From: Minisyncoccota bacterium
Lineage (GTDB): Bacteria; Patescibacteriota; Minisyncoccia; Phycocordibacterales; Phycocordibacteraceae
Length of the DNA: 64,000 nt
Assembly: GCA_035627655.1 (NCBI GenBank)
Contig: DASPLI010000001.1
Span: 112,991-176,990, forward strand
Reading direction: 5' to 3'
In this document: one piece after another, positions 2,190 through 60,591 of the stretch
How the letters are laid out: every line of letters starts with the position of its first letter
Position numbering within the stretch: position 1 is the first letter of the stretch
Notes under the pieces: generated by a model
Database searches by the model: none
What the model was told of the DNA's origin: nothing
What the model saw: the letters and a program-made list of their open reading frames with translations, nothing else
Position numbers and translations under genes: made by a program

Positions 2190-3325
2190 GCACCGAGATA
2201 TTCCTGTCCTGCGGCCGTTCGCGGAGCGCTACGAGCATGGCGCGAGAGCGATACCACTATACCGAGCGCTGCAAACTCCGTAAGCAAATGTGATCCGCCA
2301 TAGCTCATGAATGGAATGGTGGTGCCGGTAACCGGGAGGAGACCCAGGTTGATGCCGGCATGAATGAATACGTGCGCTAGAAAAAGAAGTGCGACCCCGA
2401 CCGTAAAGAGAGCGTCGAAGTTTGTTGCCGCTCTTCGCGCAAGCGCCAAGAGCTGGAAGATCAAAAGACCATAGAGCAAGAGTGCGAGCGATACGCCAAT
2501 AAAACCCCACTCTTCCGCAAACGCTGCGAAAATAAAATCGGTCTCATATTCCGGCAAGAACCGGAGCTTCGATTGCGTGCCGTAACCGATTCCCTTTCCA
2601 AAGAGTTCACCGGAACCCGCCGCAACTACTGCCTGGTAGGCGTTGTAGCCAGCACCACGAATATCGGCAGCAGGGTTGAGGAACGCCACGATGCGCGTGC
2701 GCTGGTAGTCATGCAGCCCAAAAAACCAGAGCCCCGCAGCTGCGACCACACCGAGAATAAACACGATTGCCAGATGTTTTTTTGAGATACCAGAGACGAG
2801 CACCATGCCAAACCACACGAACGATAGGATCGCTGCCGTACCAAGGTCGGGCTGAATCAGGACGAGTCCGATGAGAAGTCCTGCATACAAACCGGAAAGT
2901 ATCAGATGCCGAACATGCCGTATTTCAATATGCCGCCGAGAAAAATACTTCGCCAAAAACGCGATCAACGCGAGCTTTGCAAGGTCTGCAGGCTGAAATG
3001 AGAACGCTCCGAACGTAAACCAGGACTTTGCTCCTTTGACGGGATCCGCAAAGATAAGCAGGAGGAGTAAGAGTCCTATAGCGCCTAAATACGCAACCAT
3101 GATGACGCTGGTGCGGCGCAGCACGTGCATGTCCGCAACCGCAAGCACGGCATACACAATCAATCCAACACCGATCCACAGGAGCTGTCGCGGAGCAAAG
3201 GACTCCACTTCCCCAAACGGATGCATCGTAAGCACACCAAGGAGCGCGAGCGCTACCGCCGGCAAGAGGTAGGGCCAGCCGGAGAGAAGCGTGCGCAGAG
3301 CGCCACCTCGCGCAAGCTCGCTCAT
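2186..3325 (-). CDS. ftsW: SEDS-family peptidoglycan glycosyltransferase (FtsW/RodA/SpoVE)
   Basis: 379 aa, polytopic membrane protein. The motif LPEYETDFIFAAFAEEWGFIGVSLALLLYGLLIF matches the conserved SEDS core (PExxTDFIFA...EExG). Confidence 0.8.
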   Translation of the reverse strand: MSELARGGALRTLLSGWPYLLPAVALALLGVLTMHPFGEVESFAPRQLLWIGVGLIVYAVLAVADMHVLRRTSVIMVAYLGAIGLLLLLLIFADPVKGAKSWFTFGAFSFQPADLAKLALIAFLAKYFSRRHIEIRHVRHLILSGLYAGLLIGLVLIQPDLGTAAILSFVWFGMVLVSGISKKHLAIVFILGVVAAAGLWFFGLHDYQRTRIVAFLNPAADIRGAGYNAYQAVVAAGSGELFGKGIGYGTQSKLRFLPEYETDFIFAAFAEEWGFIGVSLALLLYGLLIFQLLALARRAATNFDALFTVGVALLFLAHVFIHAGINLGLLPVTGTTIPFMSYGGSHLLTEFAALGIVVSLSRHARSAPRTAAGQEYLGA

Positions 3326-4116
3326 GGAAGTTCGTAAACGGGGGTTATGTCTATACGTGCTGGCGCCTCCCGGAACGGCGTATTCCAGGTAAACACGAGC
3401 GGTGCCTCTCCCTGCGCTGGCAGAGATGCGACCAGCGTCTGCGATGCTGCCATGGCGTTCCCGCTCGTATCAAAGACCGTGGCAACGACCTTCACGTTTC
3501 GATACGCATGTACTGAAGGATTATTAAGTATCGCCGTTACCCGAGGAGATTCTTCTAAGTTTGCGGTTGTGATGTCTTCAACCGTAAAGAGGTCAAGTTC
3601 ACCATCCTCAATTTCGTACCAGCGAAACGATGCCTCATCAAAGGTAAGGAAAGACTGGCGAACGAACTGGCCGGCTGAGAGTGCGTTTGGAATAAAAATG
3701 GGAACGTTCGCCGCGGGCGGCAGATCCACCCTTCCTGAAGTAGAGCCCACCGGCGTACCGTTCTCTCCTAAGAATTCAATTTCATATCGAACATCTTTTG
3801 CAGCGGCAAAAGGATTTGGATTCTTAATGTAGGCAATGATATCGAGCCGTCCGCCCTGCTGCGGCAACTCGCGCACAAAAGAAACGACGGGCGGCACGAC
3901 AGAGGGCGTACATAACAGCGCGCATGAACCGCCACAATCGATACCCTCTTCGTCCTGATTCTGCTTTCCGTCGCTGCAGGATGGTGGGTTATAGAACGTA
4001 GCAATCAAAAAGCCGGCGATAACCAGCACCGCAGCGCCAACCAGAAGAAGGACGATAAATGTCCGTCGTGATGATGCCCAGGACATGGCACTGAGTATAA
4101 CAAGAAAGGCCCGCAT
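3322..4116 (-). CDS. Hypothetical membrane-anchored (single N-terminal TM) secreted protein
   Basis: Start chosen at MRAFLVILSAMSWASSRRTFIVLLLVGAAVLVIAGFLIATFY (ATG rc at 4114-4116). The longer ORF-track N-terminus up to 4482 overlaps an upstream small gene and an rRNA-unit terminator. Its stop overlaps the ftsW start. No family recognised. Confidence 0.5.
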   Translation of the reverse strand: MRAFLVILSAMSWASSRRTFIVLLLVGAAVLVIAGFLIATFYNPPSCSDGKQNQDEEGIDCGGSCALLCTPSVVPPVVSFVRELPQQGGRLDIIAYIKNPNPFAAAKDVRYEIEFLGENGTPVGSTSGRVDLPPAANVPIFIPNALSAGQFVRQSFLTFDEASFRWYEIEDGELDLFTVEDITTANLEESPRVTAILNNPSVHAYRNVKVVATVFDTSGNAMAASQTLVASLPAQGEAPLVFTWNTPFREAPARIDITPVYELP

Positions 4117-4138
4117 CTGAAGACGCAGGCCTTTTCGT

Positions 4139-4342
4139 TCAAGGAATGAGCGAACCGAGCGCAAAAAGCGCAACGAGAGCCACCACAACAAGCAGTAGAT
4201 CTTTTCCTCGTGCCGCGTCCATCTTCTTCGCAACATACTCGGACTCGGAGAGGTCGCCTCGCTCTGCCGGCGTAAGCCGGTAGAACTCGTCTCGGAGTTC
4301 TTCGCGCTCCAGATAACGGCGTTCACGTATGGATTCAAACAT
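4139..4342 (-). CDS. Small (67 aa) C-terminally membrane-anchored protein
   Basis: MFESIRERRYLEREELRDEFYRLTPAERGDLSESEYVAKKMDAARGKDLLLVVVALVALFALGSLIP. A strong RBS GGGAGGAAACA sits directly before the ATG, immediately downstream of the rRNA-unit terminator. Confidence 0.5.
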   Translation of the reverse strand: MFESIRERRYLEREELRDEFYRLTPAERGDLSESEYVAKKMDAARGKDLLLVVVALVALFALGSLIP

Positions 4343-4371
4343 TGTTTCCTCCCGTTCTGGCTGCGACTGTA

Positions 4372-4413
4372 GCATAAAAGAATGTGAAAGGCCCGGATCA
4401 AAAGATCCGGGCC
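4372..4413 (-). terminator. Intrinsic terminator downstream of 5S rRNA (end of the 23S-5S unit)
   Basis: Perfect hairpin GGCCCGGATC-AAAA-GATCCGGGCC, followed on the minus strand by CTTTCACATTCTTTTATGC. Confidence 0.6.
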
Positions 4414-4654
4414 ACGCACCGCCGAAGCACTACGCTCTTCCCGAAGGAACGAGCAATACTGGGCGGTGCCACACAATACCACACAAAAAAAGAAAGAACG
4501 GAGAGGTCATCTGGATACCTCCGCAGGACCTCCTGATCCTGGTTCGTTGGCAGGTGTTGCTCCGGTTATTCGCCGGCACCTTGCGGGCCCGCATACCAGC
4601 AACCTCTCCTGCCCGAAAAGATAGCAGGTCTGTCTTTAAAAGCAAACACGCCCA

Positions 4655-4768
<114 letters not shown>

Positions 4769-5130
4769 TAGGCGCGTTACGCTCTAGAACAACAAATGCA
4801 TAGGTATAGAAAACACAGAACAGATTGTGACATTCACGATTCCGCACAGAAAACTGGACATATTAGTACTCCTCGGCTGAACGCATTGCTGCGTGTGCAC
4901 CTAGAGCCTATCAACGTAGTAGTCTGCTACGAGTCTCATAACGATTCCTAATCTTGGAGCGAGTTTCCCGCTTATATGCTTTCAGCAGTTATCTCAACCC
5001 GACATAGCTACCCAGCAATGCTCTTGGCAGAACAGCTGGTAGACCAGAGGTCAGTTCACCCCGGTCCTCTCGTACTAGGGGCAAGCCTCCGCAAGAATCA
5101 ACGCCTGTAGTAGATAGGAGACCAACCTGT

Positions 5131-5496
5131 CTCACGCACCATGTTATTTGTGTACTCCGGTTGCTCGGAGGGTCGGACTATAGCTTCGCGAGTTCTTCGC
5201 GACTGACGTTTAGTCTCTACGGGCGCTTTCGCTTCCCTCGGAATCATCCTGTTCCTTGCAGGACTTTTCCGATACGAGTCAGTTCAATCCTATATATCCC
5301 TATATAGGACCGCCGTGATGTGTTGGTTCCTTTGATCTCGCAAAATGCTTTGAACGCGAGTCAAAATCTTATTGTGTTAGTTCTTAGCTAACACATATAT
5401 AGACGAAAAAACATTTATTAGGGATTCTGATAACAATAAACTCAATGGGATTCAGACGGTGAGGGCCTCGATTCCGAAGAATCAAGAACCCTCACG
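5131..5496 (-). mobile_element. ORF-less group I intron in 23S rRNA, in the peptidyl-transferase-centre segment (equivalent to E. coli ~U2593/A2602); boundaries ±6 nt
   Basis: Exon sequence GCGAGCTGGGTTCAGACCGTGAG resumes as CGTGAGACAGGTTGGTC about 360 nt later (CGTGAG repeated at both junctions). The insert is AT-richer than the flanking rRNA. It carries a textbook group I core: GAGACTAAACG (P7 5' strand), hairpin GTCGCGAAGAACTCGCGA (P8), CTATAGTCCGAC (P7 3' strand), a CTCCG-AGCAA-CCGGAG hairpin (P9), and ends in G. A 12-bp P1-like pairing AGACCGTGAGGG/CCCTCACCGTCT lies at the 5' junction. No ORF >60 aa lies inside. Confidence 0.65.
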
Positions 5497-6910
5497 GTCT
5501 GAACCCAGCTCGCGTACCTTTTTAATTGGCGAACAGCCAAACGCTTGGGACCTTCTCCAGCCCCGCGCTAAGGTGAGCCGACATCGAGGTGCCGAACTCC
5601 GCCGTCGCTATGGACGCTTGGGCGGAACTAGCCTGTTATCCCCAGGGTAACTTTTATCCGTTAATCTCTGGCCGCATCTAAGGCGGACCATCGGTTCACT
5701 ATGCTCTGCTTTCGCATCTGCTCGGCATGTACGCCTCGCAGTTAAGCCCTCTTATGCCATTACACTATCGGCACGGTTTCCATTCGCGCCTAGAGGACCT
5801 TAATAGACTCCTCCGTTACTTTTTAGGAGGATAGCGCCCCACCAAAACTACCCGCCACGCACTGTCCCGCCGTAGTTCTATACGGAGGTTAGGAACTGCA
5901 CACTTGAAGAGTGGTATTTCACTGGCGACTCCACGTTCCCCGAAAGGAACGCTTCAAAGTCTCCCACCTATGCTACGCATCAAGCACGCAGCCCCAATAC
6001 GAAGCTGTAGTAAAGCTCCTGGGGTCTTTTCGTCTAACTACAGGTAACCGGCATCTTCACCGGTAGTGCATTTTCACCAAGCGAGTCCTCGAGACAGTTC
6101 CCCAGTCATTACACCATTCGTGCACGTCTGAACTTACCAGACAAGGAATTACGCTACCTTAGGACGATTATAGTTATCGCCGACATTCACCGGGGCTTAT
6201 ATGGCCTAGCCAACAATCCGAAGACCGTTGACCGTCCATGCTTGACCTTCCGGCATTGGTCAGGTGTCACCCCCTATACATCCTCTTACGAGTTCGCAGG
6301 GAGCTGTGTTTTTGGTAAACAGTTGCCAGGGAGTCTTTCGCTGCGGCCCGTATTGCTACGGGCAGGCCTTATTGCGAACGTACGGCCGCTATTTTGCCGA
6401 GTTCCTTGAGGACCTCTCACTTGTTCGTCTTGGTCTTCTCGACCTGAGCACCTGTGTCGGTTTGCGGTACGGGCGTCATATGTTGAAGCTTAGAAGATTT
6501 TCTTGGAACCGCGCTCTCTCTGCTCCTCCCCTCCGAAGAAGGAAATTGCCGCTTCGCTCGGAGTAATGCCTACCGGATTTCCCTAGTAGACCTCCTCACT
6601 AACGGACCCCAATCCAATAAGGGGCCAAAAATACAGCAGTCCGTCTCTCCATCGCACATATGATCGGTCACGGAATATTAACCGTGTGTCCATCGGGTGC
6701 GGCTTTCGCCATCCCCTTAGGCCCGACTAACCCGAAGATGATCACCATTGCTTCGGAAACCTTGCTCTTTCGACGTGCGGGGTTCTCACCCGCATTGTGG
6801 TTACTTGTACCTGCATTCTCACTTCGCAACGCTCCAGTATGGGTCACCCCTTTACCTTCATCGCAGATGCGAACGCTCTCCTACCGCTTGCACGCTTCAT
6901 AGAGGGCGCG

Positions 6911-7150
6911 AATCTTGTTCGCGCAAAATGTTCATGGTGCCGGGGGCTGGAGTCGAACCAGCGACCTCCCAGGGTTTTAGACCAAGGCGCTCTACCTGCT
7001 GAGCTACCCCCGCAACCATAAACCGACCGGGTGCGAGGGTCGGACATCTGCCGACCCTCGCAGCTAACGTATACCAATCACCTTGCGGTAACGGACGACA
7101 TTAGCAACGCCACATATGGGCGTCCTCGGTATTTTGAGAGTATTTTTCAA
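6911..7150 (-). other. Intervening sequence (~240 nt) replacing the tip of 23S helix 45; it contains a tRNA-like element (minus strand, 6943-7018)
   Basis: Flanks CACGTTTCATAGAGGG / CCCTCTATGAAGCGTG are complementary and correspond to E. coli GCGACGC-TTAT-GCGTTG (helix 45, ~1164-1185), between GCCGAAACTGCGG and GGTAGGAGAGCGTTC. Inside are nested perfect hairpins (GCGAGGGTCGG-CAGATGT-CCGACCCTCGC; GCGCGAA-CAAGA-TTCGCGC) and GCGGGGGTAGCTCAGCAGGTAGAGCGCCTTGGTCTAAAACCCTGGGAGGTCGCTGGTTCGACTCCAGCCCCCGGCACCA. That sequence has an acceptor stem (one G·G mismatch), canonical D arm, T arm (GCTGG-TTCGACT-CCAGC) and an encoded CCA, but its anticodon arm does not fold canonically. Confidence 0.55.
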
Positions 7151-7850
7151 CCCTCTATGAAACGTGCAAACCCGCAGTTTCGGCACTACGCTTAACCCCG
7201 ATTATCTTCGGCGCACGGACCCTCGATGAGTGAGCTGTTACGCTTTCTTTAAATGGTGGCTGCTTCTAAGCCAACATCCTCATTGTCAAAGGATCCGCAC
7301 TTCCTTGTGGATATACTCAGCGTAGATTTTGGGGCCTTAACTGGCGATCTAGGCTCTTCCCTTCTCGACCGATGGAGCTTCGCCCCCATGGTCTAACTGC
7401 CGTGCTGTAACTTCCGGTATTCGGAGGTTGATAGGAACAACGAGATTTCTCCCTGTTTGTCCCTTCCAGTGCTCTACCCCCGGAAGGATCACACGACGCC
7501 AGCCCAAAAGCTGTTTCGGAGAGAACCAGCTATTACAGTGTTCGATTAGCTTTTCACTCCTTACCACAAGTCATCCCAAGGCGTTGTACGACCAACGGGT
7601 TCGGGCCTCCATGTGGATTTCTCCACACTTCACCCTGCTCATGGCAAGCTCACACTGCTTCGGGTCGTATATATGCCACCGGCGCGCTATTCACACTCGG
7701 TTTCCCTATGGCTCCACCCAGTAACGGGCTTAGCCGAAGCGACATATATACACTCGCAGGCTCATTCTTCAATAGGCACGCTAGGATGGACCGGAGCCCA
7801 CCCTAACCCTTTGTAAGTACACGGTTTCAGTTCTATTTCACTCCCCTCTC

Positions 7851-7884
<34 letters not shown>

Positions 7885-8711
7885 TCACTATCGGTCTTAT
7901 GAGATATTTAGCCTTACCGGTTAGTTCCGGCAGATTCACCCGGGCTATTCGTGTCCCGAGCTACTCAAGAACAGAAGCACATAAGTCGTCATACATTTCG
8001 TATACGGGGCCATTACCCTCTGGGGCGCTGCTTCCCAGCAGCTTCTACTATGTAGACGTTTTGTAACTCATGCCATACAAGTATGGCGCTTCTGCCTTAC
8101 AACCCCTACTGACGAATCAATAGGTTTGGGCTTCTCCCGTTTCGCTCGCCGCTACTTAGGGAATCGCGAGAGTTGTTTTCCATTCGTACGAGCATACGCA
8201 CGAACGGAAAACAACTCGCTTTTGTTTTCTATTCCTCCAGGTACTGAGATGTTTCACTTCCCTGGGTTCGCTCCTTCTCCATACGGAGTAAGGTGATCCT
8301 TTCTGGATCGGGTTTCCCCATTCGGACATCTCCGGATCACAGGCTATAAGCCGCCTCCCCGGAGCATTTCGCAGGCTAATCACGTCCTTCATCGCTCTCA
8401 TAAGCCTAGGCATCCACCGTGCACCCTTCAGTGTTTCCTGTGCGGAAACCTGAATCCCACAATCTTTTCTGTGTTTGCACTTCTCCTCACGTTCTTGCGA
8501 AACGTGAGTCGATTACCTATGCATGTTGTCAAAGTTCTGTGTCCCTTCAAACGAAAACCGCCCCTCGGGGCGGTGTTCGTGTTTGCACACGAGGCCTTAG
8601 GGCCGTACCCGCTCCGATAAATAAGTGGTGTTCGTAGTGATAGACACGTAGGGGCTAGTCTATAGGAGCGGAAGAGGCATGTCAAGCGACCTGAAACGGC
8701 CTAGGTACGGG

Positions 8712-51877: not shown

Positions 51878-51952
51878 GGGCGACCTATGGGACTCGAACC
51901 CATAACCGCCTGGACCACAACCAGGAGCTCTACCAATTGAGCTAAGGCCGCC
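51878..51952 (-). tRNA. tRNA-His (anticodon GTG) with genomically encoded G-1
   Basis: rc GGCGGCCTTAGCTCAATTGGTAGAGCTCCTGGTTGTGGTCCAGGCGGTTATGGGTTCGAGTCCCATAGGTCGCCC. The anticodon loop is TTGTGGT. An extra 5' G pairs with discriminator C73. No CCA is encoded. Confidence 0.85.
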
Positions 51953-51999
51953 ATGTGAACGGTGTTCCTTATACCACGCGCACTGCGCAGACGAAAGCG

Positions 52000-52191
52000 T
52001 TACGCGTGCGTCTCGCGAAGGAAATACCAGCCGAAATGCGTGACAAAGAGAATAAGTTGTAGCGACAGCGCAAGAATTGTTGCGTGCCAAAGTTCGCCCG
52101 TGGTGGCGTAGAAGAAAACTTCCGTTATCAAAAATGCAATAGCACGCCACTCAAGTGATACCTTCATCGATTTGATAAGGCGTTGCTTCAT
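52000..52191 (-). CDS. Small two-TM membrane protein (DUF2061-like)
   Basis: 63 aa. MKQRLIKSMKVSLEWRAIAFLITEVFFYATTGELWHATILALSLQLILFVTHFGWYFLRETHA. Confidence 0.4.
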   Translation of the reverse strand: MKQRLIKSMKVSLEWRAIAFLITEVFFYATTGELWHATILALSLQLILFVTHFGWYFLRETHA

Positions 52192-52244
52192 AAAATAATC
52201 ATGCCACTTAATGCCTACACGACAAGCTGTGTATAACGCCTGGC

Positions 52245-52718
52245 TTATATGAAGTTTGCTGCCTCTGTCTTCAGAATTCCTATCGCCTCTTCAAGCGTCT
52301 CGCACTTTTGAATGTTGTAACTAATACAAACGATATCCACATTCCCTTTTCGCCAGAAACCTTCGGGGCAGACCACGAGCAGCTTGCTGCTTCGCGCAAA
52401 GAGCCCAAGCTCCAAAAGAGAAATGGGAGATTTTGTCTCAGGCGAAAAATACATCAAGATTCGGTCTGCACTTTCAAGACCAGCAAGCTCCCACTCCACC
52501 TGATTTCGAAAGGGACCAGCATCTTCTCGTTGCTCCCACGAAGGGTCCCATGATTCGTGGCGTGGATTGAGCACCACCCAGTCTGTTTCCTCAAGCATTT
52601 CCTCCACGCGCTCCTGCCAATCATCTGCCGTTCCCATCTCGATAGAACCGGCGAGAAAGAGCCGGGGCCTGCCTTCGGGAGCGGGATGCGGCGGCTTATA
52701 TACCTTCATTGCTTGCAT
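52245..52718 (-). CDS. Nucleoside 2-deoxyribosyltransferase-like protein
   Basis: Start at MQAMKVYKPPHPAPEGRPRLFLAGSIEMGTADDWQERV... (LAGS...DW motif of the PF05014/PF15891 families). The ORF-track start at 52811 would overlap tRNA-Leu and is rejected. Confidence 0.5.
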   Translation of the reverse strand: MQAMKVYKPPHPAPEGRPRLFLAGSIEMGTADDWQERVEEMLEETDWVVLNPRHESWDPSWEQREDAGPFRNQVEWELAGLESADRILMYFSPETKSPISLLELGLFARSSKLLVVCPEGFWRKGNVDIVCISYNIQKCETLEEAIGILKTEAANFI

Positions 52719-52766
52719 GATAACGCACGAAGGCGCCCGATCGGGCGCCTTCGTTTGTATGTTTTG

Positions 52767-52848
52767 TGCCCAGGAGAGGACTCGAACCTCCACCCCTTTC
52801 GGGACTACCACCTCAAGGTAGCGTGTATACCAATTTCACCACCTGGGC
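52767..52848 (-). tRNA. tRNA-Leu (anticodon GAG), long variable arm
   Basis: rc GCCCAGGTGGTGAAATTGGTATACACGCTACCTTGAGGTGGTAGTCCCGAAAGGGGTGGAGGTTCGAGTCCTCTCCTGGGCA. The anticodon arm is CTACC-TTGAGGT-GGTAG. Confidence 0.85.
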
Positions 52849-52890
52849 AGGTGCGAACTCGCCCACTATACGAGAAACGGCCCGCAAACG

Positions 52891-53436
52891 CTAGGCCGTT
52901 GCCTTCTCTTCTGACTCCGCTGCCGGAGCTTCCTCAGTAGGAGCTGCAGCAACTTCTGCTTCCGCTACCGTCTCTTCTGCTGGAGCGGCGACAACTTCCT
53001 CTGCCGGAGCCTCTTCAACAGGAGCTGCCTCAGCAACAACCGGGGTCTCCTCTGGCTTCTGTGCGAAGTCGTCTGTCGAGACATTCATCATGCGCATGTT
53101 GCGAAGCTGGCGGCGAACTTCGCGAGCAACCTTCTCGCGGATGAAGTAGAGCTTTGCACGGCGGACCTTCGAGCGGCGTACGATCTCAATCTTTTCGATG
53201 AAGGGAGCGTAGAGCGGGAAAATGCGCTCGACGCCAATGCCAGAGAGCGTTGCGCGTACCGTGAAGGTGGCGCCCGCCTCCGTACCGTGCTTCACCGCAA
53301 GCACCAGGCCTTCAAAGGTCTGGGTACGGGTCTTTCCCTTTTCGACGATCTTCTGATGGACACGAACCGTATCCCCGGGACGGACCCCGAGTTTCTGGCG
53401 CTCCTCGATCGCAACTGGCGTGATAACACCTGCCAT
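52891..53436 (-). CDS. rplS: 50S ribosomal protein L19 with an acidic Ala/Glu/Pro-rich C-terminal extension
   Basis: 181 aa. ...[43 protein letters not shown]... followed by ~60 aa of AEEAPA-type low complexity. Confidence 0.85.
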
Positions 53437-53460
53437 AGATGCCGCACTCTAGCATGAGGC

Positions 53461-54201
53461 TTAGAGGGAAGCAACGATCCCGGCTCCATCGGGGAAAGTC
53501 TCGACTGCAGCCGCGAAGTCTGCCGGGAGCGGAGACCGGAGCGTTACCCGTTCCCCATCCGGGAGTGGGAGCTCTAAACTGAGCGCGTGGAGCGCCAGGC
53601 GCGTAAAGCCAAGGCCCTGTTTTTTACCCGGAGCATAGAGCGGATCGGCGACAACCGGATGATGAATGGCCTTGAGATGCACCCGGATCTGGTGCGTACG
53701 GCCTGTTTCCGGAATCAGTTGTATAAGCGCGTACTCCCCTGCTTCGGCAAGCACCTGGTAGTGCGTGATGGCATCCCGGAGCATGCCTTTTGCCTTTGGC
53801 TGCGCGGAGCGGAGGCGGAAGTCTTGGCGCGAACGGCCAATAGGAAAATCAATCGTTCCTTTCTTTTCTTTCGGCGCCCCGTACGTTACGGCAATATAGG
53901 TCTTCTTGGTATCGCGTCCTTGAAACGCCGCCTTAAGGAATGCGTGCGCGTCCTGCGTTTTTGCAAACACCAGAACACCGGACGTGTCGCGGTCGAGCCG
54001 ATGCACGACGCCCGGGCGGAGCAACTCGCTTCCATCTGGAAGTCGCTGCGTCTCGCCAACCGTCGCGGAAGCGGGATACTGAGCGGCAAACCAGTCGCTT
54101 GCCGTCTCTTCGGTGTTTCGCCCATCAGGATGCGTCATGATGCCTGCCGGCTTGTTTACCGCAACGATGGCATCGTTCTCAAAGAGGATCGGAAGCTCCA
54201 T
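53461..54201 (-). CDS. RluA-family pseudouridine synthase
   Basis: 246 aa. ...GVVHRLDRDTSGVLVFAKT... (catalytic Asp motif) and ...GRTHQIRVHL... Confidence 0.8.
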   Translation of the reverse strand: MELPILFENDAIVAVNKPAGIMTHPDGRNTEETASDWFAAQYPASATVGETQRLPDGSELLRPGVVHRLDRDTSGVLVFAKTQDAHAFLKAAFQGRDTKKTYIAVTYGAPKEKKGTIDFPIGRSRQDFRLRSAQPKAKGMLRDAITHYQVLAEAGEYALIQLIPETGRTHQIRVHLKAIHHPVVADPLYAPGKKQGLGFTRLALHALSLELPLPDGERVTLRSPLPADFAAAVETFPDGAGIVASL

Positions 54202-54242
54202 ACTTCCAAAAGTACCCTAAATCGGCTATCGTGCACACTGTA

Positions 54243-54318
54243 GCGCGCTTAGCTCAGTTGGTAGAGCATCCCGTTTACACCGGGCAGGTCGGGGGTTCGA
54301 GTCCCTCAGCGCGCACCA
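54243..54318 (+). tRNA. tRNA-Val (anticodon TAC), CCA encoded
   Basis: GCGCGCTTAGCTCAGTTGGTAGAGCATCCCGTTTACACCGGGCAGGTCGGGGGTTCGAGTCCCTCAGCGCGCACCA. Confidence 0.85.
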
Positions 54319-54339
54319 CTAGGCTATACTGCAAGGTAT

Positions 54340-55599
54340 ATGCCTGAATTTCCTCCGCGTACTGGCGAGCGCAATGAATGGTGGCGACGACTCGGACGAC
54401 GAGCCATGACTCCGTTTGTAGGTATGGAAGCAATTTGGCAGGACGCGCAGAAAGCGTCTGCTGAACGAGAACTTAAATGGGAAGAGGTAACGTCGAGCCT
54501 CTACCACTTCCCTGAGTGGGCGATGCTCGATCTTCGTGCACAATGGGAAGCATTTCGTTTTGAACAGCTGCAAAAGCCAAAAAATCAGGAGCGTGTTGAG
54601 GGGCGACGAGAAAAGATCCAGGAACTCCACGATGATCTTGCCGCAGAAGAACACCTGCTGCAGGAGCGCATATATGCATGGCGCACGCAAACGGAAGAAG
54701 CGCTGGATGCATTCAATGACGACCTACAGGAGCTCACCGGAAACCGCCTGGCCTGGAAGGACAAAACCTTCGACTCCCTCCTGTCGACAGTGGAGGTGAC
54801 GATGGAAGCGCTCAAAGAGCAGATGAAGATGATTGAGAAGCATGGCACACACGTCGCACAACAAAGTGAAAATGTTGCCGGTGAGTTGCAGTCGTACGAA
54901 CAGATACACACGAACACAGGTGAAGCGATCAAGCGGTTGAAACTCTTCAAGCGCGATCTGATTGTTTCTTGGGGTGAAGATGTAACAAAGCTCGGTACAG
55001 AGGAAACCATACCGGACATCGCCCATCGGATTACCAAAAAGCGCGCGAAGCTTGAGAAGGCGCTGAAGAGTGAAGGTACGCCTGAAGCTATCGCCATGCG
55101 CCGACAGCAGCTTGTTGCTGAACGTGATGCGCTCCTTGAAAGCGTCGATCACGCGAAACTCCGCATTGAGATGTACCGCCGCAAGCTCAACGAAAAGAAG
55201 AGCGCCATCAAGGAACTGCTTGCCGGTAACGATCCACGCATTGCACAGGAGCAGCGTGAACGAGCAGGTATTGAAGTATTCTTGGATCAGCTTGCTGGGT
55301 ATGAGAGTCTTGCTGTTCGATTCGAAACACCGGAGATGGTGCGACTCTCCACTGAGCATGCCGAGACCGTACGCGATCTCGGCGACCGTCCGCTCGCTAT
55401 CGATCTCGAGCGCATACTTGAACGCACGCCGGTACCTAATGATTTGCGTCTTACCCTTGAGCAGTCGTTCGGCGAACGGTATGAACCCGTTACGCTCGAT
55501 CAGGTGCGCGGACTGCGCAATATTGTTCTTGGGTACGTGCACTACACGTATACTGAACCCGATACCCAAACGCCTGATGAACTAACTGAAGCTGCATGA
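54340..55599 (+). CDS. Hypothetical coiled-coil protein
   Basis: 419 aa, extensively heptad-like and E/K/R/Q-rich. No family recognised. Flanked by tRNA genes. Confidence 0.45.
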   Translation: MPEFPPRTGERNEWWRRLGRRAMTPFVGMEAIWQDAQKASAERELKWEEVTSSLYHFPEWAMLDLRAQWEAFRFEQLQKPKNQERVEGRREKIQELHDDLAAEEHLLQERIYAWRTQTEEALDAFNDDLQELTGNRLAWKDKTFDSLLSTVEVTMEALKEQMKMIEKHGTHVAQQSENVAGELQSYEQIHTNTGEAIKRLKLFKRDLIVSWGEDVTKLGTEETIPDIAHRITKKRAKLEKALKSEGTPEAIAMRRQQLVAERDALLESVDHAKLRIEMYRRKLNEKKSAIKELLAGNDPRIAQEQRERAGIEVFLDQLAGYESLAVRFETPEMVRLSTEHAETVRDLGDRPLAIDLERILERTPVPNDLRLTLEQSFGERYEPVTLDQVRGLRNIVLGYVHYTYTEPDTQTPDELTEAA

Positions 55600-55820
55600 C
55601 CGTCGCCTCCCTCATCGCCCAATTCCTCTCCGAACCGGTTCTTTATCCGCTTCTCAAAGAGCCTGAGCTAGAATCAATCGCGAAACGCGAGCCGGCCTCC
55701 TTGCTCTCACCTGCAGATATCGCCAAAGTGCTTGCGCTCTTTGATCGTATTGAAAGCGTGCTTGATACTGAAGAAAAGAAACTTTCCCGCTACGAAGCGG
55801 AGCTTGTTGCAATGCAATAG
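55596..55820 (+). CDS. Hypothetical small protein
   Basis: 74 aa. Its start overlaps the upstream stop (ATGA), suggesting translational coupling. Confidence 0.4.
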   Translation: MTVASLIAQFLSEPVLYPLLKEPELESIAKREPASLLSPADIAKVLALFDRIESVLDTEEKKLSRYEAELVAMQ

Positions 55821-55822
55821 TG

Positions 55823-55904
55823 TGCCCAGAAGAGGATTCGAACCTCCAACCCTTGCGGGATACGCTTCTGAGGCGTACGCGTATACCAATTCCGCCACCT
55901 GGGC
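55823..55904 (-). tRNA. tRNA-Leu (anticodon CAG)
   Basis: rc GCCCAGGTGGCGGAATTGGTATACGCGTACGCCTCAGAAGCGTATCCCGCAAGGGTTGGAGGTTCGAATCCTCTTCTGGGCA. Confidence 0.85.
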
Positions 55905-55918
55905 AGGTGTGCTGCTTG

Positions 55919-55990
55919 CGCCCCCAGAAGGAATCGAACCTCCATCAAGAGCTTAGAAGTCTCCTGCTCTATCCATTGAGCTATGGGGGC
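55919..55990 (-). tRNA. tRNA-Arg (anticodon TCT)
   Basis: rc GCCCCCATAGCTCAATGGATAGAGCAGGAGACTTCTAAGCTCTTGATGGAGGTTCGATTCCTTCTGGGGGCG. The anticodon stem has one A·G mismatch. Confidence 0.75.
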
Positions 55991-56011
55991 ACGTACTGCT
56001 ACCCTACCGCA

Positions 56012-56305
56012 TCAGCGAGAGGGGTCAACGAATTGATATTCAGTACTGTAGCGTGCGCCTTCTTCAAGCTGCGCACGAAACGCATCCTGCAGTCCCTCAA
56101 CGCCAGCAGTGGTGATATGTGTCGGCGTTGCAGACGCCGCTTCGCCCGAGAGAACACGCAGGAAGAACGACGTATTCCACCAAACACTGATTGCAAGCGC
56201 GAGCAATGCGCACGCAAGAATGATGAGCCAGTCGCGTTCAGGATGTCGCCCACCAAGACCTTTAGGCAGTGACAGCTGCGTTAGATTTTTGGGGAGTGAA
56301 ATCAT
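56012..56305 (-). CDS. Hypothetical small membrane protein, fourth gene of the pilMNO-like operon (PilP-like position)
   Basis: Start MISLPKNLTQ overlaps the upstream stop (ATGA). One TM helix (LIILACALLALAISVWW). Confidence 0.4.
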   Translation of the reverse strand: MISLPKNLTQLSLPKGLGGRHPERDWLIILACALLALAISVWWNTSFFLRVLSGEAASATPTHITTAGVEGLQDAFRAQLEEGARYSTEYQFVDPSR

Positions 56306-56805
56306 GGTGTAAGTGCAGCGACGGACATGCGGTAGGTAGCGCGCCACGAACTGTCGCCCCGGGCATCGAGCGATAGTGCGCCAGTTGCTCCTGCATATGG
56401 TCCATGTTCAAGCGCTCCAATCGTGCGCATGACCGCTTCAAACGACCCTTCAATGGAAAGCGCGATGGTGATGCGTCCGTTTTCAACATCTGAAACCGAA
56501 GCAATATCTACCGACGCCCCATGCGTTCGTCCCATCACTTCAAGCGTCTCAAGAAAGGCAACAACATCTTCTTCAGAAACTGCGTGCGTTGCGACAAACG
56601 CCTCTCCTTCGGCAAGCTCTTCTGCAGCGAGCCGTGCTGTCGCCGAAAGTGCGCGCGCACCACTCTTCTCTTCAATCTGCGCGGCAAGTGAACGAGCATC
56701 TTCGGCCGTTGCTTCAACGCGCGCAAGCCAGAACCAGTACGCGCCAATGGAAACAACCGCAAGCAATACGGCGATCACAGTATGGCTGAGGGCTGGGTTT
56801 TTCAT
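56302..56805 (-). CDS. pilO: Type IV pilus assembly protein PilO-like
   Basis: 167 aa. N-terminal TM (VIAVLLAVVSIGAYWFW), a coiled segment, then a soluble domain. Position and topology match PilO. Confidence 0.45.
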   Translation of the reverse strand: MKNPALSHTVIAVLLAVVSIGAYWFWLARVEATAEDARSLAAQIEEKSGARALSATARLAAEELAEGEAFVATHAVSEEDVVAFLETLEVMGRTHGASVDIASVSDVENGRITIALSIEGSFEAVMRTIGALEHGPYAGATGALSLDARGDSSWRATYRMSVAALTP

Positions 56806-57356
56806 GGTGCAAGTACTCCCGTTAGCGTAATCGTAAACGGAATATCCGATTCCGCTGCATATACCGAGAGTGGAAGGTTGGCGGAGGATACGAACGAGAG
56901 ATTGTTGAGTGCCGTGTGATAGCGGCGTAATGCCTCCCGAGAAGCGGCAATGCCGGTAATCGTCATTGCAGACTCGCCGCTTGGGCTTGGAGAAACGGAG
57001 AAGCCGGTGAGGCGCACGCCCTCGTGCGGGAGTGCAAGGAAATCGCGTACGACGGGCGTTGTTTTTGGCTGTGCAAGCAGCGCGGAGAGCTCCCCCGCCT
57101 TCCTGGCAAGCTCGTTCGCACGCTCGCTCACCGGCCGCTCATTGGCCGCGCCAGGAAGCAGTGTGAGATCTGCAAGATGCTTTTGGCGTGTCGCTACCTC
57201 TTCCGAAAGATAAAAGTACGACGGGAGCAATAAAATACCGTGCAGGACCACCACCACAAATACAACGCTCGCAGCAACGGTAATCAGACGAAGCATATAC
57301 TCGCGATTGAGGTCGCGCAGACGATTGGCCGGTAAGAGATTGGTGAGGTTAGGCAT
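56802..57356 (-). CDS. pilN: Type IV pilus assembly protein PilN-like
   Basis: Start at MPNLTNLLPANRLRDLNREYMLRLITVAASVVFVVVVLHGILLLPSYFYL (cytoplasmic tail plus one TM, as in PilN). It overlaps pilM by 8 nt. The ORF-track N-terminal extension is rejected. Confidence 0.5.
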   Translation of the reverse strand: MPNLTNLLPANRLRDLNREYMLRLITVAASVVFVVVVLHGILLLPSYFYLSEEVATRQKHLADLTLLPGAANERPVSERANELARKAGELSALLAQPKTTPVVRDFLALPHEGVRLTGFSVSPSPSGESAMTITGIAASREALRRYHTALNNLSFVSSANLPLSVYAAESDIPFTITLTGVLAP

Positions 57357-58422
57357 AGTCTCGTAGGGCAAGTCCGATCGCCGTTCCGTACGCAAGAGAC
57401 GCCGTGTACTCAAGCGGTGGCAGCCAAACCTCGCGTGGGGCGAAATTGGTGAACACGTCTCCAAGCGCAACAGGAACCTTGAGCGATGCTTCAAGATACT
57501 CCGGAAGTCCGAGCACTGTTGCGTTACCACCGACCAGGAGCACGCGCGAAACCGGTTCATGGGTCGCGTTTGCGCGCGACTGCCAATACTCAAGACGCTT
57601 CATGATTTCGTCTCGAATGACCGATACCGTCGAGAGCATGGCAGCCAAGTATTCTTCGTTTCCGCTTCCGGGCGCAATTCCCTTCTCCGCTTTAACTCGC
57701 TTGGCTTCTTCCTCCGAAACGCCGAAATGTTTCTGGACGGCAAGCGTAAGTGCGTGACCGCCGATATCCAACGTTGTAACAAATCGCGGAAGGCGCGCCG
57801 TTGCTATCAAAAGCTTGGTGGTTGTTTTCCCAATATCAATAATGAGTACCGTTTCGTCCGTGCGTACTGGAAGGAGTGCTCGCGGAAGCGCGAACGTTTC
57901 GCTCTCAAGCGCACGAACCCGTACGCGCGCTTCGTCAAACACCGCGAGTGTTTCTTCAACGACGCGCCTGGCATATCCAACGCCTACCAGCTGTGTTCCC
58001 TGCTCGCCTTTGCGCACCGGAGCAACCGTAAACTCTACGTCTTGAGACGGAAGTGGAACGTATTCTTCAAGATGCTGCTCGACGGCGATCTTCTGCGCCC
58101 CTGGCTCGTCTGCTTGCACCACCGCTTCAAACAAATAGCCGCGCGCTTCTGGAAGTGCTACGTTTGCAAAGCGGACCTTATGTTTTTTCATCAAATCCTT
58201 GAGCGTGCTTGCAACAGCGCCCGGATCGCGAAGCTCCCCGCCGACAACCGCTCCGGTCGGAAGCGCAACTTCGTCAAATGCCGACAACTCAAGGCCGTGT
58301 ACATGTTCGCGGATGCGGGCAAGTTTAATACCGCTCGTGGAGATATCGATGCCTGCTGACGGCATCGATAGATAGTCTGGCGGCGCAAGTTCGACCCGAA
58401 GAAAGCGCGAAAGAGCCTGCAT
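57349..58422 (-). CDS. pilM: Type IV pilus assembly ATPase-fold protein PilM
   Basis: 357 aa, actin/FtsA-like. ...SAGIDISTSGIKLARI... and ...TTLDIGGHALTLAV... Confidence 0.75.
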   Translation of the reverse strand: MQALSRFLRVELAPPDYLSMPSAGIDISTSGIKLARIREHVHGLELSAFDEVALPTGAVVGGELRDPGAVASTLKDLMKKHKVRFANVALPEARGYLFEAVVQADEPGAQKIAVEQHLEEYVPLPSQDVEFTVAPVRKGEQGTQLVGVGYARRVVEETLAVFDEARVRVRALESETFALPRALLPVRTDETVLIIDIGKTTTKLLIATARLPRFVTTLDIGGHALTLAVQKHFGVSEEEAKRVKAEKGIAPGSGNEEYLAAMLSTVSVIRDEIMKRLEYWQSRANATHEPVSRVLLVGGNATVLGLPEYLEASLKVPVALGDVFTNFAPREVWLPPLEYTASLAYGTAIGLALRDYA

Positions 58423-58442
58423 GCTCTTTAGTATACCAGTGC

Positions 58443-58769
58443 TTAGTGCGCGCTTGTGCCGGGAGGAACGGGGCGATCGGGTGTTAGAAATGCGAACGTG
58501 TCTCCAGAGCCAACGGCAAACAGCATGCCGTTTGATTCAATGCCTTTGATGGTGCGCGGTTCAAGGTTCGCAACAAACGCAAGCTGGCGACCAACCAGTG
58601 TCGCTGGGTCGGCGACATACGCTGCGATGCCCGACACAATTTGGCGCGGAGCGTCTTCCCCAAAATCAACCATGAGCCGTAAGAGCTTGTCGGTTTCAGG
58701 AACTCGCTCGGCACTCAAGACGGTGCCGACCTTCACTTGAATCTTTCCCAGATCATCAATGGTTGCCAT
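58443..58769 (-). CDS. tRNA-binding domain protein (CsaA/Trbp111/MetRS-C-terminal-like)
   Basis: Start at MATIDDLGKIQVKVGTVLSAERVPETDKLLRLMVDFGEDAPRQIVSGIAAY... (OB-fold tRNA-binding domain signature). Confidence 0.65.
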   Translation of the reverse strand: MATIDDLGKIQVKVGTVLSAERVPETDKLLRLMVDFGEDAPRQIVSGIAAYVADPATLVGRQLAFVANLEPRTIKGIESNGMLFAVGSGDTFAFLTPDRPVPPGTSAH

Positions 58770-59154
58770 GGCGTGTAAGATAGCTCGTAAGAATAAGGGC
58801 TGCCGCGCTCGCGTCAACATCTTTCATGGCGCCACGCTCACCGTCAAACCCGCGACCCGCCTCCTGTGTGGTAAACACTTCTGGTTCGAAGTGAACCGGA
58901 AGACCCGTTTCCACTTGTAGCTTTTCGGCAAACACCTTTGCCTCTTTTGCAACTGGATTCTCTTCCCCGGCAAGATTGCGGGATTCCCCCACCACCACCG
59001 CCTCCACGTCGTTGGCACGTATGAGCGAAACTATGTTGGCAAGCAGCTGATCGTCGTTTTTGAGCGTACTGTGCGGGAAGCCCATCTGACCTCCTTCGTC
59101 AGATACTGCCACTCCCACTTTTTTCGTCCCGAAGTCGATTCCGAGGTGTCGCAT
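58756..59154 (-). CDS. ruvX: Holliday-junction resolvase-like RNase YqgF/RuvX
   Basis: Start at MRHLGIDFGTKKVGVAVSDEGGQMGFPHSTL... Classic RuvX N-terminus. Confidence 0.8.
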   Translation of the reverse strand: MRHLGIDFGTKKVGVAVSDEGGQMGFPHSTLKNDDQLLANIVSLIRANDVEAVVVGESRNLAGEENPVAKEAKVFAEKLQVETGLPVHFEPEVFTTQEAGRGFDGERGAMKDVDASAAALILTSYLTRHGNH

Positions 59155-59181
59155 ACACCAATCGTAGCAGAAAAGGCCGTT

Positions 59182-59526
59182 ATGGTATTCTGCTTGCGTA
59201 TGTGGAATCCATTTGTGGGCGACCCGATCGTTGGTCCGCTCTTGCATTCAGTCGGCCTGGGCATTCTCTTCCCTGTCTTCTGGATTGTGCTCTTGGTCTG
59301 GACCTTCGCTTCGAAGGCGCTTGGGCTCTGGTATGCTGCGCGAAACTGTCAGCGTGTATGGTTCGTCGTATTCATGCTTGTGCACACGATCGGCATTCTT
59401 GAGATGATCTATCTCAAGTGGTACCAGAAGGACCGCCATGACGGAAACACCCGCCTCTTCCCTTTCCTGAAGGGGTGGATGCAACGGGCGCGCGAAATGG
59501 TATCATCACGCGCGTCAGACAAATAA
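59182..59526 (+). CDS. Hypothetical membrane protein
   Basis: Start near MVFCLRMWNPFVG. Three predicted TM helices. Divergent from ruvX. Confidence 0.35.
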   Translation: MVFCLRMWNPFVGDPIVGPLLHSVGLGILFPVFWIVLLVWTFASKALGLWYAARNCQRVWFVVFMLVHTIGILEMIYLKWYQKDRHDGNTRLFPFLKGWMQRAREMVSSRASDK

Positions 59527-59530
59527 ACAC

Positions 59531-59615
59531 GGAGGAGTGGCAGAGTGGTCTATCGCACCTGTCTTGAAAACAGGAGTCTCGCAAGGGACCGTGAGTTCGA
59601 ATCTCACCTCCTCCG
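59531..59615 (+). tRNA. tRNA-Ser (anticodon TGA), long variable arm
   Basis: GGAGGAGTGGCAGAGTGGTCTATCGCACCTGTCTTGAAAACAGGAGTCTCGCAAGGGACCGTGAGTTCGAATCTCACCTCCTCCG. Confidence 0.85.
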
Positions 59616-59656
59616 CTAAATGCAAAACTGCTCGCTAACAATCTGTTAGCGAGCAG
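59616..59656 (-). terminator. Intrinsic terminator overlapping the 3' end of the Zn-ribbon small gene
   Basis: Perfect 13-bp hairpin CTGCTCGCTAACA-ATC-TGTTAGCGAGCAG, followed on the minus strand by TTTTGCATTTAG. Confidence 0.6.
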
Positions 59657-59900
59657 TGAGCCGTTCCATGAGCCGCTGACTTTTTGGCTCGAAACGGGGA
59701 CTATTGATGGTTGCTGTAGTGAAGTCTGTCGCGACAAGCTTGCGTCCGAGCCTTGCTTCAAGATGCTCGACGCACAGCATGCCGTTGACGGTAGGCATCA
59801 CCTGCAACCAGAGGTCAGTGTGAACGAAGTAGTGTTCGTGGATTTTCCCGGTATCGACGCCACAATCGACACAAAGAAATTTACGGCGAGATTTTGCCAC
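59646..59900 (-). CDS. Small Cys/His-rich (putative Zn-ribbon) protein, GTG start
   Basis: 84 aa. MAKSRRKFLCVDCGVDTGKIHEHYFVHTDLW...MLCVEHLEARLGRKL. RBS GGAGGAGGG sits 2 nt before the GTG, and a near-consensus promoter lies upstream. Confidence 0.5.
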   Translation of the reverse strand: MAKSRRKFLCVDCGVDTGKIHEHYFVHTDLWLQVMPTVNGMLCVEHLEARLGRKLVATDFTTATINSPRFEPKSQRLMERLTAR

Positions 59901-59937
59901 CGCCCTCCTCCTCTGTTCCGGTGCTAACCGAATCGTG

Positions 59938-59965
59938 ATAGTACGTCGATTTTTATGTATGTCAA
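59938..59965 (-). promoter_or_regulatory. Near-consensus sigma-70 promoter for the Zn-ribbon small gene
   Basis: On the minus strand: TTGACA, 16-nt spacer, TACTAT. Confidence 0.5.
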
Positions 59966-60036
59966 TAATTACCTCATAACCGTAGCAATGGATGGCACTA
60001 CGTACACATCACTAGGTTGCGCGAGGTATTCATGAA

Positions 60037-60552
60037 TTGACCGCAAAACACCCCATCACCTGGTGGTATGATGGGCGCATGGAAGAGACGCCCGTCTTTG
60101 CATGGGAGGGCCGCGAGTACCAATTTGAAGAAAAGACTGCGGACTGGTACTGGGCACTCGGCATTATCGCGACTGCTGCCGCGATTGCCTCGGTCTTGTT
60201 TGGAAATATTCTGCTTGCGCTCGTTATTGCCGCAGCTGCTGTCTCTGTTGCGCTCGTCGCCTCTCGCGGCAGCCGCATGCATCGTTTCGCCATCTTTGAA
60301 AATGGCGTTGCGATCGACGATCATTTTTACCCGTTTGAGATCATGCTCCACTTCTCCGTGCTTGAGTATGTTGACGAAACCCTCCCTCCTTCCCTCTCCA
60401 TAAAAACCCGGCGCTTCCTTACGCCGCATTTCCTCATTCCTATCGTCGGCCATGATCCGGTCGAGATTTACGAGTTCATCTCGCAGCACCTTCCGGAAGG
60501 CAACCACCACGAGTCGCCCATGGACCGACTGGTCGAACTCTTCCGCATCTAG
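60037..60552 (+). CDS. Hypothetical membrane protein
   Basis: 171 aa (TTG start in the ORF track; the alternative ATG at 60079 gives MEETPVFAW...). Two or three TM helices. The antisense ORF 59998-60510 is rejected. Confidence 0.4.
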   Translation: MTAKHPITWWYDGRMEETPVFAWEGREYQFEEKTADWYWALGIIATAAAIASVLFGNILLALVIAAAAVSVALVASRGSRMHRFAIFENGVAIDDHFYPFEIMLHFSVLEYVDETLPPSLSIKTRRFLTPHFLIPIVGHDPVEIYEFISQHLPEGNHHESPMDRLVELFRI

Positions 60553-60591
60553 CTTGCGGTAGAGCCGTCAAAACGATAGAGTCATCAGGAC

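Follow-up and report, generated by a model that had tools for sequence, protein, structure and literature searches.

What does a structure shaped like a transfer RNA (tRNA) do inside a 23S ribosomal RNA (rRNA) gene? The question is raised by a 64,000-nucleotide (nt) stretch of a Minisyncoccota bacterium genome (assembly GCA_035627655.1, contig DASPLI010000001.1, positions 112,991 to 176,990; the whole stretch is called the window hereafter), whose 23S rRNA gene carries at helix 45 an insert with a tRNA-like element. We found that this insert belongs to a conserved and apparently undescribed family of helix-45 inserts with a tRNA-like element, which occurs in Paceibacterota and Kaiserbacteria. 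The comparison of its copies shows family-wide selection for the L-shape of tRNA without decoding capacity, and, judged from sequence, a processing role of the element is plausible.

The cmscan alignment of the window 23S rRNA placed an extra block of ~265 nt in the loop of a hairpin (model positions ~1210-1226) that directly precedes the conserved GGUAGGAGAGCGUUC. This hairpin is helix 45 (E. coli ~1164-1185), a classical site of bacterial intervening sequences. Compared with a relative whose gene has no insert (L034), the window 23S has a single large extra block, at 23S nt 1277-1548. The helix strands CACGTTTCATAGAGGG (7166-7151) and CCCTCTATGAAGCGTG (6906-6891) enclose 244 nt (7150-6907); on the rRNA strand, CACGUUUCAUAGAGGG (7166-7151) pairs with CCCUCUAUGAAGCGUG (6906-6891). 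An initial annotation of this DNA had proposed a helix-45 intervening sequence at 6911-7150. The extra block and the plain hairpins found in relatives bear out the proposal; position 7150 is exact, and the other end is off by 4 nt. In the minimum free energy (MFE) fold, the closing helix has 20 continuous base pairs (bp), 7171-7152 with 6905-6886, or 21 when G7151-C6906 is counted. By its site, its extended helix and its sporadic distribution, the insert is a helix-45 intervening sequence. No open reading frame (ORF) is contained in it.

Within the insert, ARAGORN called a 79-nt "tRNA-Leu(taa)" at 7013-6935, on the same strand as the rRNA. The Rfam tRNA model (RF00005) matched it with 47.0 bits against a gathering threshold of 29 (E 6.8e-7 for the whole window, 4e-9 for the region), and our family model R1 scored it at 78.9 bits. 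The acceptor stem GCGGGGG/CCCCGGC contains one mismatch (G3.G70) and is accompanied by U8-A9, a D arm (GCUC-AGCAGGUA-GAGC), a T arm (GCUGG-UUCGACU-CCAGC), A73 and an encoded CCA. All the nucleotides of the elbow are present (U8, A14, G15:C48, G18G19, G53:C61, U54U55C56, and A58). The tRNA architecture that the initial annotation had read on the rRNA strand, with its arms, was thus recovered both by ARAGORN and by the covariance model.

The anticodon arm (6990-6971) is 20 nt long, against 17 expected. Its best pairing, CCUUGG-UCUAAAAC-CCUGGG, forms a 6-bp stem with a U.U mismatch and an 8-nt loop, and the stem forced by ARAGORN has two internal mismatches. Because of this arm, the window element is not a decoding tRNA, as had been suspected from its non-canonical anticodon region: it lacks both a canonical anticodon arm (5-bp stem, 7-nt loop, U33, and a purine at 37) and the identity elements for Leu. 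A tRNA-Leu needs a long variable arm, and the variable region here is of class I, with 5 nt (AGGUC), despite the Leu(UAA) label of ARAGORN. Of the eight canonical tRNA genes of the window (51878-60748), seven are without an encoded CCA, and Val-UAC is the only exception.

Other identities were tried and rejected. Neither ARAGORN nor Rfam matched a transfer-messenger RNA (tmRNA) at the insert. A group I intron was discarded, with no Intron_gpI match in the window, none in the region at E up to 10, and no ORF in the insert. A module like Y-RNA or YrlA had no Rfam match, and its context differs. For a quadruplet-decoding or suppressor tRNA, the loops vary from 4 to 8 nt among relatives, and the window element and that of L013 have C33; a frameshift suppressor would be harmful if expressed at rRNA level.

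We scanned one genome per GTDB species, and then metagenome contigs of JGI and ENA, for a canonical T-loop followed, after 40-70 nt, by the conserved sequence that flanks helix 45 on its 3′ side. A tRNA-shaped element was present at the same site in 19 further 23S genes, which gives 20 loci with the window (L002, L003, L005-L010, L012-L014, L017, L018 [=L021], L019, L022, L025, L026, L028, and L029 are the others). The comparison with related 23S genes of the Candidate Phyla Radiation (CPR), which the initial annotation had suggested, thus revealed the same insert in many of them. Six loci had two tandem elements, and 25 elements were parsed, excluding a degraded upstream copy in L014. The loci with a taxon label were Patescibacteria, either Paceibacterota or Kaiserbacteria, with the exception of L010, labeled Bacillota.

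The contig of this exception (JBLNCF010000015.1), from a "Bacillota bacterium" metagenome-assembled genome (MAG), has 23S flanks 89.6% identical to those of the window and also the FxLYD-like gene adjacent to the 5S rRNA (P0024); it looks like a mis-binned Paceibacteria contig. Nine chance matches to the pattern were discarded (L001, L004, L011, L015, L016, L020, L023, L024, and L030). Also rejected was a human-gut contig with a coverage of ~498 (L027:1-2123), probably an assembly chimera of abundant RNAs. It joins the 3′ third of a 23S rRNA, a complete tmRNA and a 23S helix 44-45 region, and was matched via the T-arm of the tmRNA.

The helix-45 extension YTTCATWGAGG/CCTCWATGAA, with a covarying W at its centre, is common to all loci. 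Most of them also have a leader/trailer helix, which lengthens the acceptor stem by 6-13 bp and is unrelated in sequence from locus to locus, and a GC-rich hairpin lies between the trailer and the closing helix in 18 of the 20. Full-text literature searches, which left most subscription journals uncovered, returned no report of an intervening sequence in 23S rRNA, or of any CPR rRNA, that contains a tRNA or a tRNA-like element. The element is not mentioned in a study of CPR ribosomes (PMC9297842) or in a study of tRNA introns in Patescibacteria (PMC13011429).

In an alignment of the 18 elements of normal length, the acceptor, D, and T stems were 96.5% paired. The covariation score was 0.713, compared with 0.193 for shuffled partners; none of 500 shuffles reached the observed value, and sliding the partners by 1-3 columns gave 0.16 or less. 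Compensatory double changes were found in all seven acceptor pairs. The suggestion that a degenerate tRNA had simply been inserted does not agree with this strong structural conservation and covariation over 25 diverged copies.

The anticodon-arm hairpin was kept in every element, with unrelated sequences. A 7-nt anticodon loop with U33 was present in only five of the 25 (L005, Trp-CCA; L012a, Lys-CUU; L019a, Ile-GAU; L019b, UCA; L029a, Val-GAC). The remaining 20 deviate from this in loop size (4, 5, 6, or 8 nt), in the base at position 33 (C or G), or by 20-125 nt inserted into the D, anticodon, or variable arm. The closest insert-bearing relatives of the window are L013, with the anticodon arm CUUCC-UCUAAAG-GGAAG (7-nt loop, C33), and L017, with CCAAAGG-UUGAAG-CCUUUGG (6-nt loop). 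CCA was encoded in 16-17 elements. The G3:U70 pair, which is the alanine identity pair, occurred in six elements, and nine had mismatches in the acceptor stem. Between the window and these two closest relatives, the tRNA-like element and the 3′ part of the insert were 0.75-0.82 identical, and the 5′ domain was at the aligner baseline (0.48-0.62); the blastn alignment with L013 starts only at the tRNA-like element and leaves the 5′ domain unaligned.

Six loci (L018, L022, L025, L029, L010, and L002) showed expansions of 20-125 nt in the D loop, anticodon or variable arm, with the acceptor/T minihelix kept. The expanded elements are too short for group I introns. Five of them reached the gathering threshold of the Rfam tRNA model, with 42-54 bits, and that of L018 was found by R1 only, with 52.9 bits.

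Relatives of the window organism were also retrieved by gene order (L10-L7/L12-hypothetical-MscS-[23S-5S]-FxLYD-like-FtsW), blind to the insert. Seven 23S genes were comparable (L034/L036, L038, L040, L044, L047, and L049); the loci whose contigs break before the 23S gene were left out (L031-L033, L039, L041-L043, L045, and L046). Five syntenic relatives (L034/L036, L038, L040, L044, and L049) had a plain helix 45, with 40 nt from CCGAA to GGUAG, which forms a 12-13-bp hairpin with a tetraloop. The helix-45 insert of L047 (4170-4240) is short, with ~45 nt; it consists of two small hairpins, AAGGUUCGACCUU and CAAGGUCGAACCUUG, and has no fold like that of a tRNA. When a neighbour-joining tree was built from the 23S flanks of helix 45 (555 nt), these syntenic genes interleaved with those that bear the insert, so the insert has been gained or lost often, in the manner typical of intervening sequences, and is dispensable as a whole. 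The identity of these flanks to the window was 91.6% for L034, which has no insert, and 91.8% for L013, which has one. The R1 model found no further copies in the examined DNA of the insert-less relatives. An insert that is dispensable as a whole but constrained inside suggests a role in cis (removal, disposal, or folding away from the rRNA), and this pattern argues against a needed trans-acting product.

The fold of the whole insert in the window had an energy of -144 kcal/mol, far stabler than that of shuffled sequences (z = -8.1), and an enforced cloverleaf was energetically equivalent to the MFE fold. The three-way junction of the 5′ domain carries hairpins at 7123-7107, 7105-7063, and 7062-7032. 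The leader and trailer form a 9-bp helix (7023-7015 with 6938-6930) that extends the acceptor stem, and U7014, at position -1, is unpaired. The coordinates of the features of the insert and of the operon are shown in Table 1.

Table 1. Features of the 23S-5S rRNA operon and of its helix-45 insert, in window coordinates
Feature	Position	Strand	Basis or remark
Terminator of upstream gene	8751-8723	minus	precedes the promoter of the 23S-5S operon
Sigma-70-like promoter, TTGACA-17-TAGACT	8657-8685	minus	sole promoter-like site on the rRNA strand, ~220 nt upstream of 23S
23S rRNA gene, 3596 nt	4845-8440	minus	Rfam RF02541, 2366 bits, full length 1-2925 (model of 2925 positions)
Closing helix, 5′ strand GUUUGCACGUUUCAUAGAGG	7152-7171	minus	native helix 45 plus the insert-specific extension YTTCATWGAGG, conserved family-wide
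Variable 5′ domain	7024-7150	minus	small hairpin (7150-7134) and three-way junction (fold)
Leader strand GUUUAUGGU	7015-7023	minus	pairs with A73-CCA and the trailer
tRNA-like element, 79 nt, with A73 (6938) and CCA (6937-6935)	6935-7013	minus	ARAGORN, Rfam, R1
Trailer UGAAC	6930-6934	minus	completes the leader/trailer helix
3′ hairpin GCGCGAA-CAAGA-UUCGCGC	6906-6924	minus	GC-rich, abuts the closing helix
Closing helix, 3′ strand CCUCUAUGAAGCGUGCAAGC	6886-6905	minus	pairs with 7171-7152 (fold)
5S rRNA	4658-4764	minus	Rfam RF00001, 79.6 bits; 80 nt downstream of 23S

The rRNAs of rrn operons are separated by spacer tRNAs (16S-tRNA-Ile-tRNA-Ala-23S), and several features of the family recall them. 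The true 23S-5S spacer of L005, another Paceibacterota genome, contains a module of like design (L005:7206-7337; Rfam tRNA 39.7 bits, R1 42 bits). It has a leader/trailer helix, G3:U70, an anticodon arm enlarged by an insertion of ~55 nt, and an encoded GCCA; GTTCTTT and a hairpin come next. The insert of L019 (3735-3895) has an element of Ile(GAU) type and then one of Ala type (G3:U70) with the anticodon loop UCA; Ile followed by Ala is the classical order of the 16S-23S spacer tRNAs. If this second element were released and charged by alanyl-tRNA synthetase, it would be a UGA-reading Ala tRNA. Several family members have features of Ala type (G3:U70) or Ile(GAU) type, and complementary leader and trailer flanks are a further likeness. 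The promoter scan of the rRNA strand found no promoter-like site within the insert, and therefore the tRNA-like element would be co-transcribed with the 23S rRNA, as spacer tRNAs are with theirs. Unlike spacer tRNAs, the family element lies inside the 23S gene, so that in the window it would be "between rRNAs" only if the 23S rRNA is fragmented, and 20 of the 25 copies, including that of the window, cannot decode.

The heptamer GTTCTTT was located 9-17 nt upstream of 10 of the 25 elements, ~50-fold over background (L002, L003, L008, L009, L010, L012, L018, L025, L026, and L028), and is missing from the insert of the window itself. In four 23S leaders (those of the window, L003, L005, and L009), a hairpin precedes (A/T)CTTTGACAA; in the window, this is a terminator-like hairpin at 8574-8557 followed by the boxA-like AACTTTGACAAC. 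Both GTTCTTT and (A/T)CTTTGACAA recall boxA antitermination motifs, a putative resemblance that serves as a lead only.

We propose, with middling confidence, that the insert is a spacer-like intervening sequence with tRNA punctuation that is removed by RNase III, RNase P, and exonucleases. Transcription from the single upstream promoter would yield it as a part of the 23S precursor, and it would fold autonomously into the closing helix, the variable 5′ domain, the tRNA module on its leader/trailer helix, and the 3′ hairpin, an arrangement that is supported by folding and by comparison. Host enzymes of rRNA and tRNA processing would then excise it without religation. RNase III, which excises the known helix-45 intervening sequences, would cleave the closing helix, and perhaps also that of leader and trailer. 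Bacterial RNase P recognises the elbow and accepts as substrate any acceptor/T minihelix whose 3′ end is RCCA, and for this reason we infer a cut 5′ of G7013; from the 3′ side, exonucleases would remove the nucleotides beyond the encoded CCA. The result would be a 23S rRNA in two pieces, of ~1.29 kb (8440-7152) and ~2.06 kb (6905-4845), joined by the helix-45 stem.

The tRNA-like module would then be a cis-acting "punctuation" or disposal handle. It may derive from spacer-type tRNA genes, several of them of Ala or Ile type, and would be kept for its L-shape, its acceptor/T minihelix, and its CCA, and not for decoding. A gene without the insert would have no need of such a module, so that loss of the whole insert would be harmless, which fits the patchy distribution. 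Two details differ from what the initial annotation had envisaged. It had the tRNA-like element replace the usual RNase III hairpin, whereas a continuous RNase III-type closing helix is present and conserved. It had also considered the element a substrate of RNase Z. This is doubtful: CCA is encoded here, and an encoded CCA is known to inhibit bacterial RNase Z. Insertions in CPR rRNAs have been reported to be absent from transcripts (Brown, 2015, as cited in PMC9297842).

Several points weigh against this proposal. For the window organism, excision and every cleavage site are deduced from the sequence. The intact RNase III-type helix could by itself remove the insert, and RNase P would probably be slowed by the pairing of leader and trailer, in which both the CCA and the 5′ leader are sequestered. 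A motif search matched no RNase III, RNase Z, RnpA, or CCA-adding enzyme in the 64-kb window of a genome of ~743 kb, and carries little weight. The pattern used for the scan demanded a T-loop, so that the conservation of the flank-proximal T-loop is partly built in; this requirement does not account for what is conserved in the acceptor, the D arm, the anticodon-arm hairpin, or the upstream copies. The scan also has an ascertainment bias, as it could not gauge the share of inserts without a tRNA-like element.

An unlikely account of the same data is that the elements are passenger tRNA genes, that is, that an ordinary RNase III insert carries spacer tRNAs on a strong rRNA promoter, a few of them functional and most, including that of the window, decaying pseudogenes without a processing role. 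The five canonical anticodon loops (Trp CCA, Lys CUU, Ile GAU, Val GAC, and UCA) would be expected in this case, RNase III would seem to need no more than the closing helix, and close relatives dispense with the insert. However, under neutral decay the stems would not have stayed 96.5% paired, nor would each acceptor pair show compensatory changes. The invariant tertiary nucleotides of the D- and T-loops and the anticodon-arm hairpins have been kept in hosts whose 23S flanks differ by up to 37%, and the adjacent 5′ domain, free to vary, has diverged past alignment. The absence of the whole insert from close relatives, with no second copy in their examined DNA, also speaks against the release of a non-decoding tRNA with a needed function in trans, such as an Ala-chargeable (G3:U70) donor for cell-envelope synthesis or a signal coupled 1:1 to ribosome synthesis. 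Moreover, the acceptor stems and 3:70 pairs are heterogeneous (G.G in the window), with mismatches in nine of the 25 acceptors. We regard such a role as distinctly unlikely, even though G3:U70 is found in six of the 25 elements and in the spacer copy of L005, CCA is strongly enriched, and the elbow and acceptor are intact next to a disabled anticodon loop.

Helix 45 is the site of a eukaryotic expansion segment, and the mammalian mitoribosome has a structural tRNA. The insert could likewise be retained unexcised, as a tRNA-shaped domain displayed at helix 45 on the surface of the 50S subunit. In an uncut RNA, however, a conserved internal discriminator and CCA and a precursor-like leader/trailer helix would have no evident purpose; all characterised helix-45 intervening sequences are excised, and presence and absence among near relatives argue against a ribosomal function. 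We thus hold a retained domain to be very unlikely, with the tolerance of helix 45 to insertions and the compact fold of the module (z = -8.1) on its side, together with the lack of several ribosomal proteins in CPR ribosomes (PMC9297842). Lateral spread between 23S genes, as a mobile element with the termini TTCATWGAGG/CCTCWATGAA whose tRNA-like part serves mobility or harmlessness, partly overlaps with removal as a punctuated spacer and is compatible with it. The ends are conserved, with a covarying central W, between 23S genes whose flanks are only 63-70% identical, the distribution is patchy, and bacterial intervening sequences elsewhere are thought to be transferred horizontally (PMC11270868). 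We consider mobility very unlikely as the explanation, given that the insert has no transposase, endonuclease, or other ORF and that no copies were found outside rRNA operons in the DNA examined. Finally, rRNA regions are hard to assemble in MAGs, and the initial annotation had named an assembly chimera as a possible cause. Chimera or chance resemblance is next to impossible here, because the arrangement recurs in 19 independent assemblies besides that of the window, with one architecture at the identical nucleotide position, a tRNA model score of 47 bits, and an insert that folds with z = -8.1.

The proposed punctuated removal can be extended to a reading to which we give a slim chance. Helix 45 in part of the Paceibacterota and Kaiserbacteria might be a true internal transcribed spacer, copied, with its boxA-like motif and its tRNAs of Ile or Ala type, from the spacer of the rRNA operon and punctuated by RNase P, and the CCA-bearing, often G3:U70 RNAs released from it, one per ribosome, might have a second life as non-decoding chargeable RNAs. 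Such a spacer would be the bacterial counterpart of mitochondrial punctuation and of the eukaryotic internal transcribed spacer 2.

Among known systems, the insert is closest in site to the helix-45 intervening sequences of Salmonella, Yersinia, Campylobacter, Leptospira, and Coxiella, from which RNase III excision leaves the 23S rRNA without religation. As in these, it lies at the apex of helix 45, its ends form an extended perfect helix, it is sporadic among close relatives, and a fragmented 23S rRNA is to be expected. Unlike them, it holds a tRNA-shaped module, a leader/trailer helix, and an encoded CCA. The known helix-45 intervening sequences are simple hairpins or carriers of an ORF of the S23p family, and to our knowledge none has been reported with any of these three features. 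The most complete survey of insertions in CPR rRNAs interprets short non-intron inserts at such sites as intervening sequences that RNase III probably cuts, and tRNA is nowhere mentioned in it (PMC11270868).

In its working, the family would be closest to tRNA-like processing signals, in that a non-decoding tRNA fold lies inside a longer transcript, is conserved among relatives, and would recruit the enzymes that process tRNA ends. Plant mitochondrial t-elements, the mascRNA of MALAT1, and mitochondrial tRNA punctuation are signals of this kind. None of these lies within a bacterial 23S rRNA, and in the window an RNase III-type helix coexists with the element, cleavage is putative, and the encoded CCA points to RNase P and exonucleases, away from RNase Z. 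In archaea, a tRNA-like structure 5′ of the 5S rRNA of Haloferax volcanii is cut by tRNase Z (Holzle, 2008, cited in PMC3296008). In the mitochondria of Tetrahymena pyriformis, a tRNA gene lies between the pieces of the large subunit (LSU) rRNA (Heinonen, 1987, cited in PMC2996981). This is again a tRNA unit between two LSU rRNA pieces; unlike the window, it concerns an organelle, a decoding tRNA, another site, and rearranged pieces.

Bacterial 23S intervening sequences have so far been regarded as simple RNase III hairpins, and tRNA punctuation of rRNA as organellar and, for 5S, archaeal. A conserved tRNA-shaped module in a bacterial 23S rRNA would link the two. It would offer a testable case of a role of RNase P in rRNA fragmentation and hints at how an rRNA spacer may arise inside a gene. 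There is also a practical side, as scanners call such elements tRNA genes ("tRNA-Leu(UAA)" in the window; Tyr, Asp, Glu, Phe, and selenocysteine elsewhere), and these calls can corrupt the tRNA inventories of CPR bacteria and inferences on their genetic code.

An Rfam scan detected no 16S rRNA within the 64-kb window, and the operon consists of 23S and 5S, unlinked from any 16S gene. The leader and trailer sequences of the window 23S rRNA are able to pair into a long processing stem. A second insertion-polymorphic site of the 23S gene was observed at window position ~6155 (23S nt 2285/2286), where L034, L038, and L040 have ~194-205 extra nt and L013 has ~1.3 kb, with none in the window or L044.

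The ORF adjoining the 5S rRNA (3322-4482, minus strand) was called mechanically with 386 amino acids, and the actual gene encodes ~254. Its product is 100% identical to a protein encoded on a 742,728-bp contig of a Candidatus Paceibacterota MAG, in agreement with the CPR host assumed by the initial annotation. It has no Pfam match; one homologue is named "FxLYD domain-containing". More than 120 homologues were found, and the position of the gene beside the 5S rRNA is conserved in Paceibacterota.

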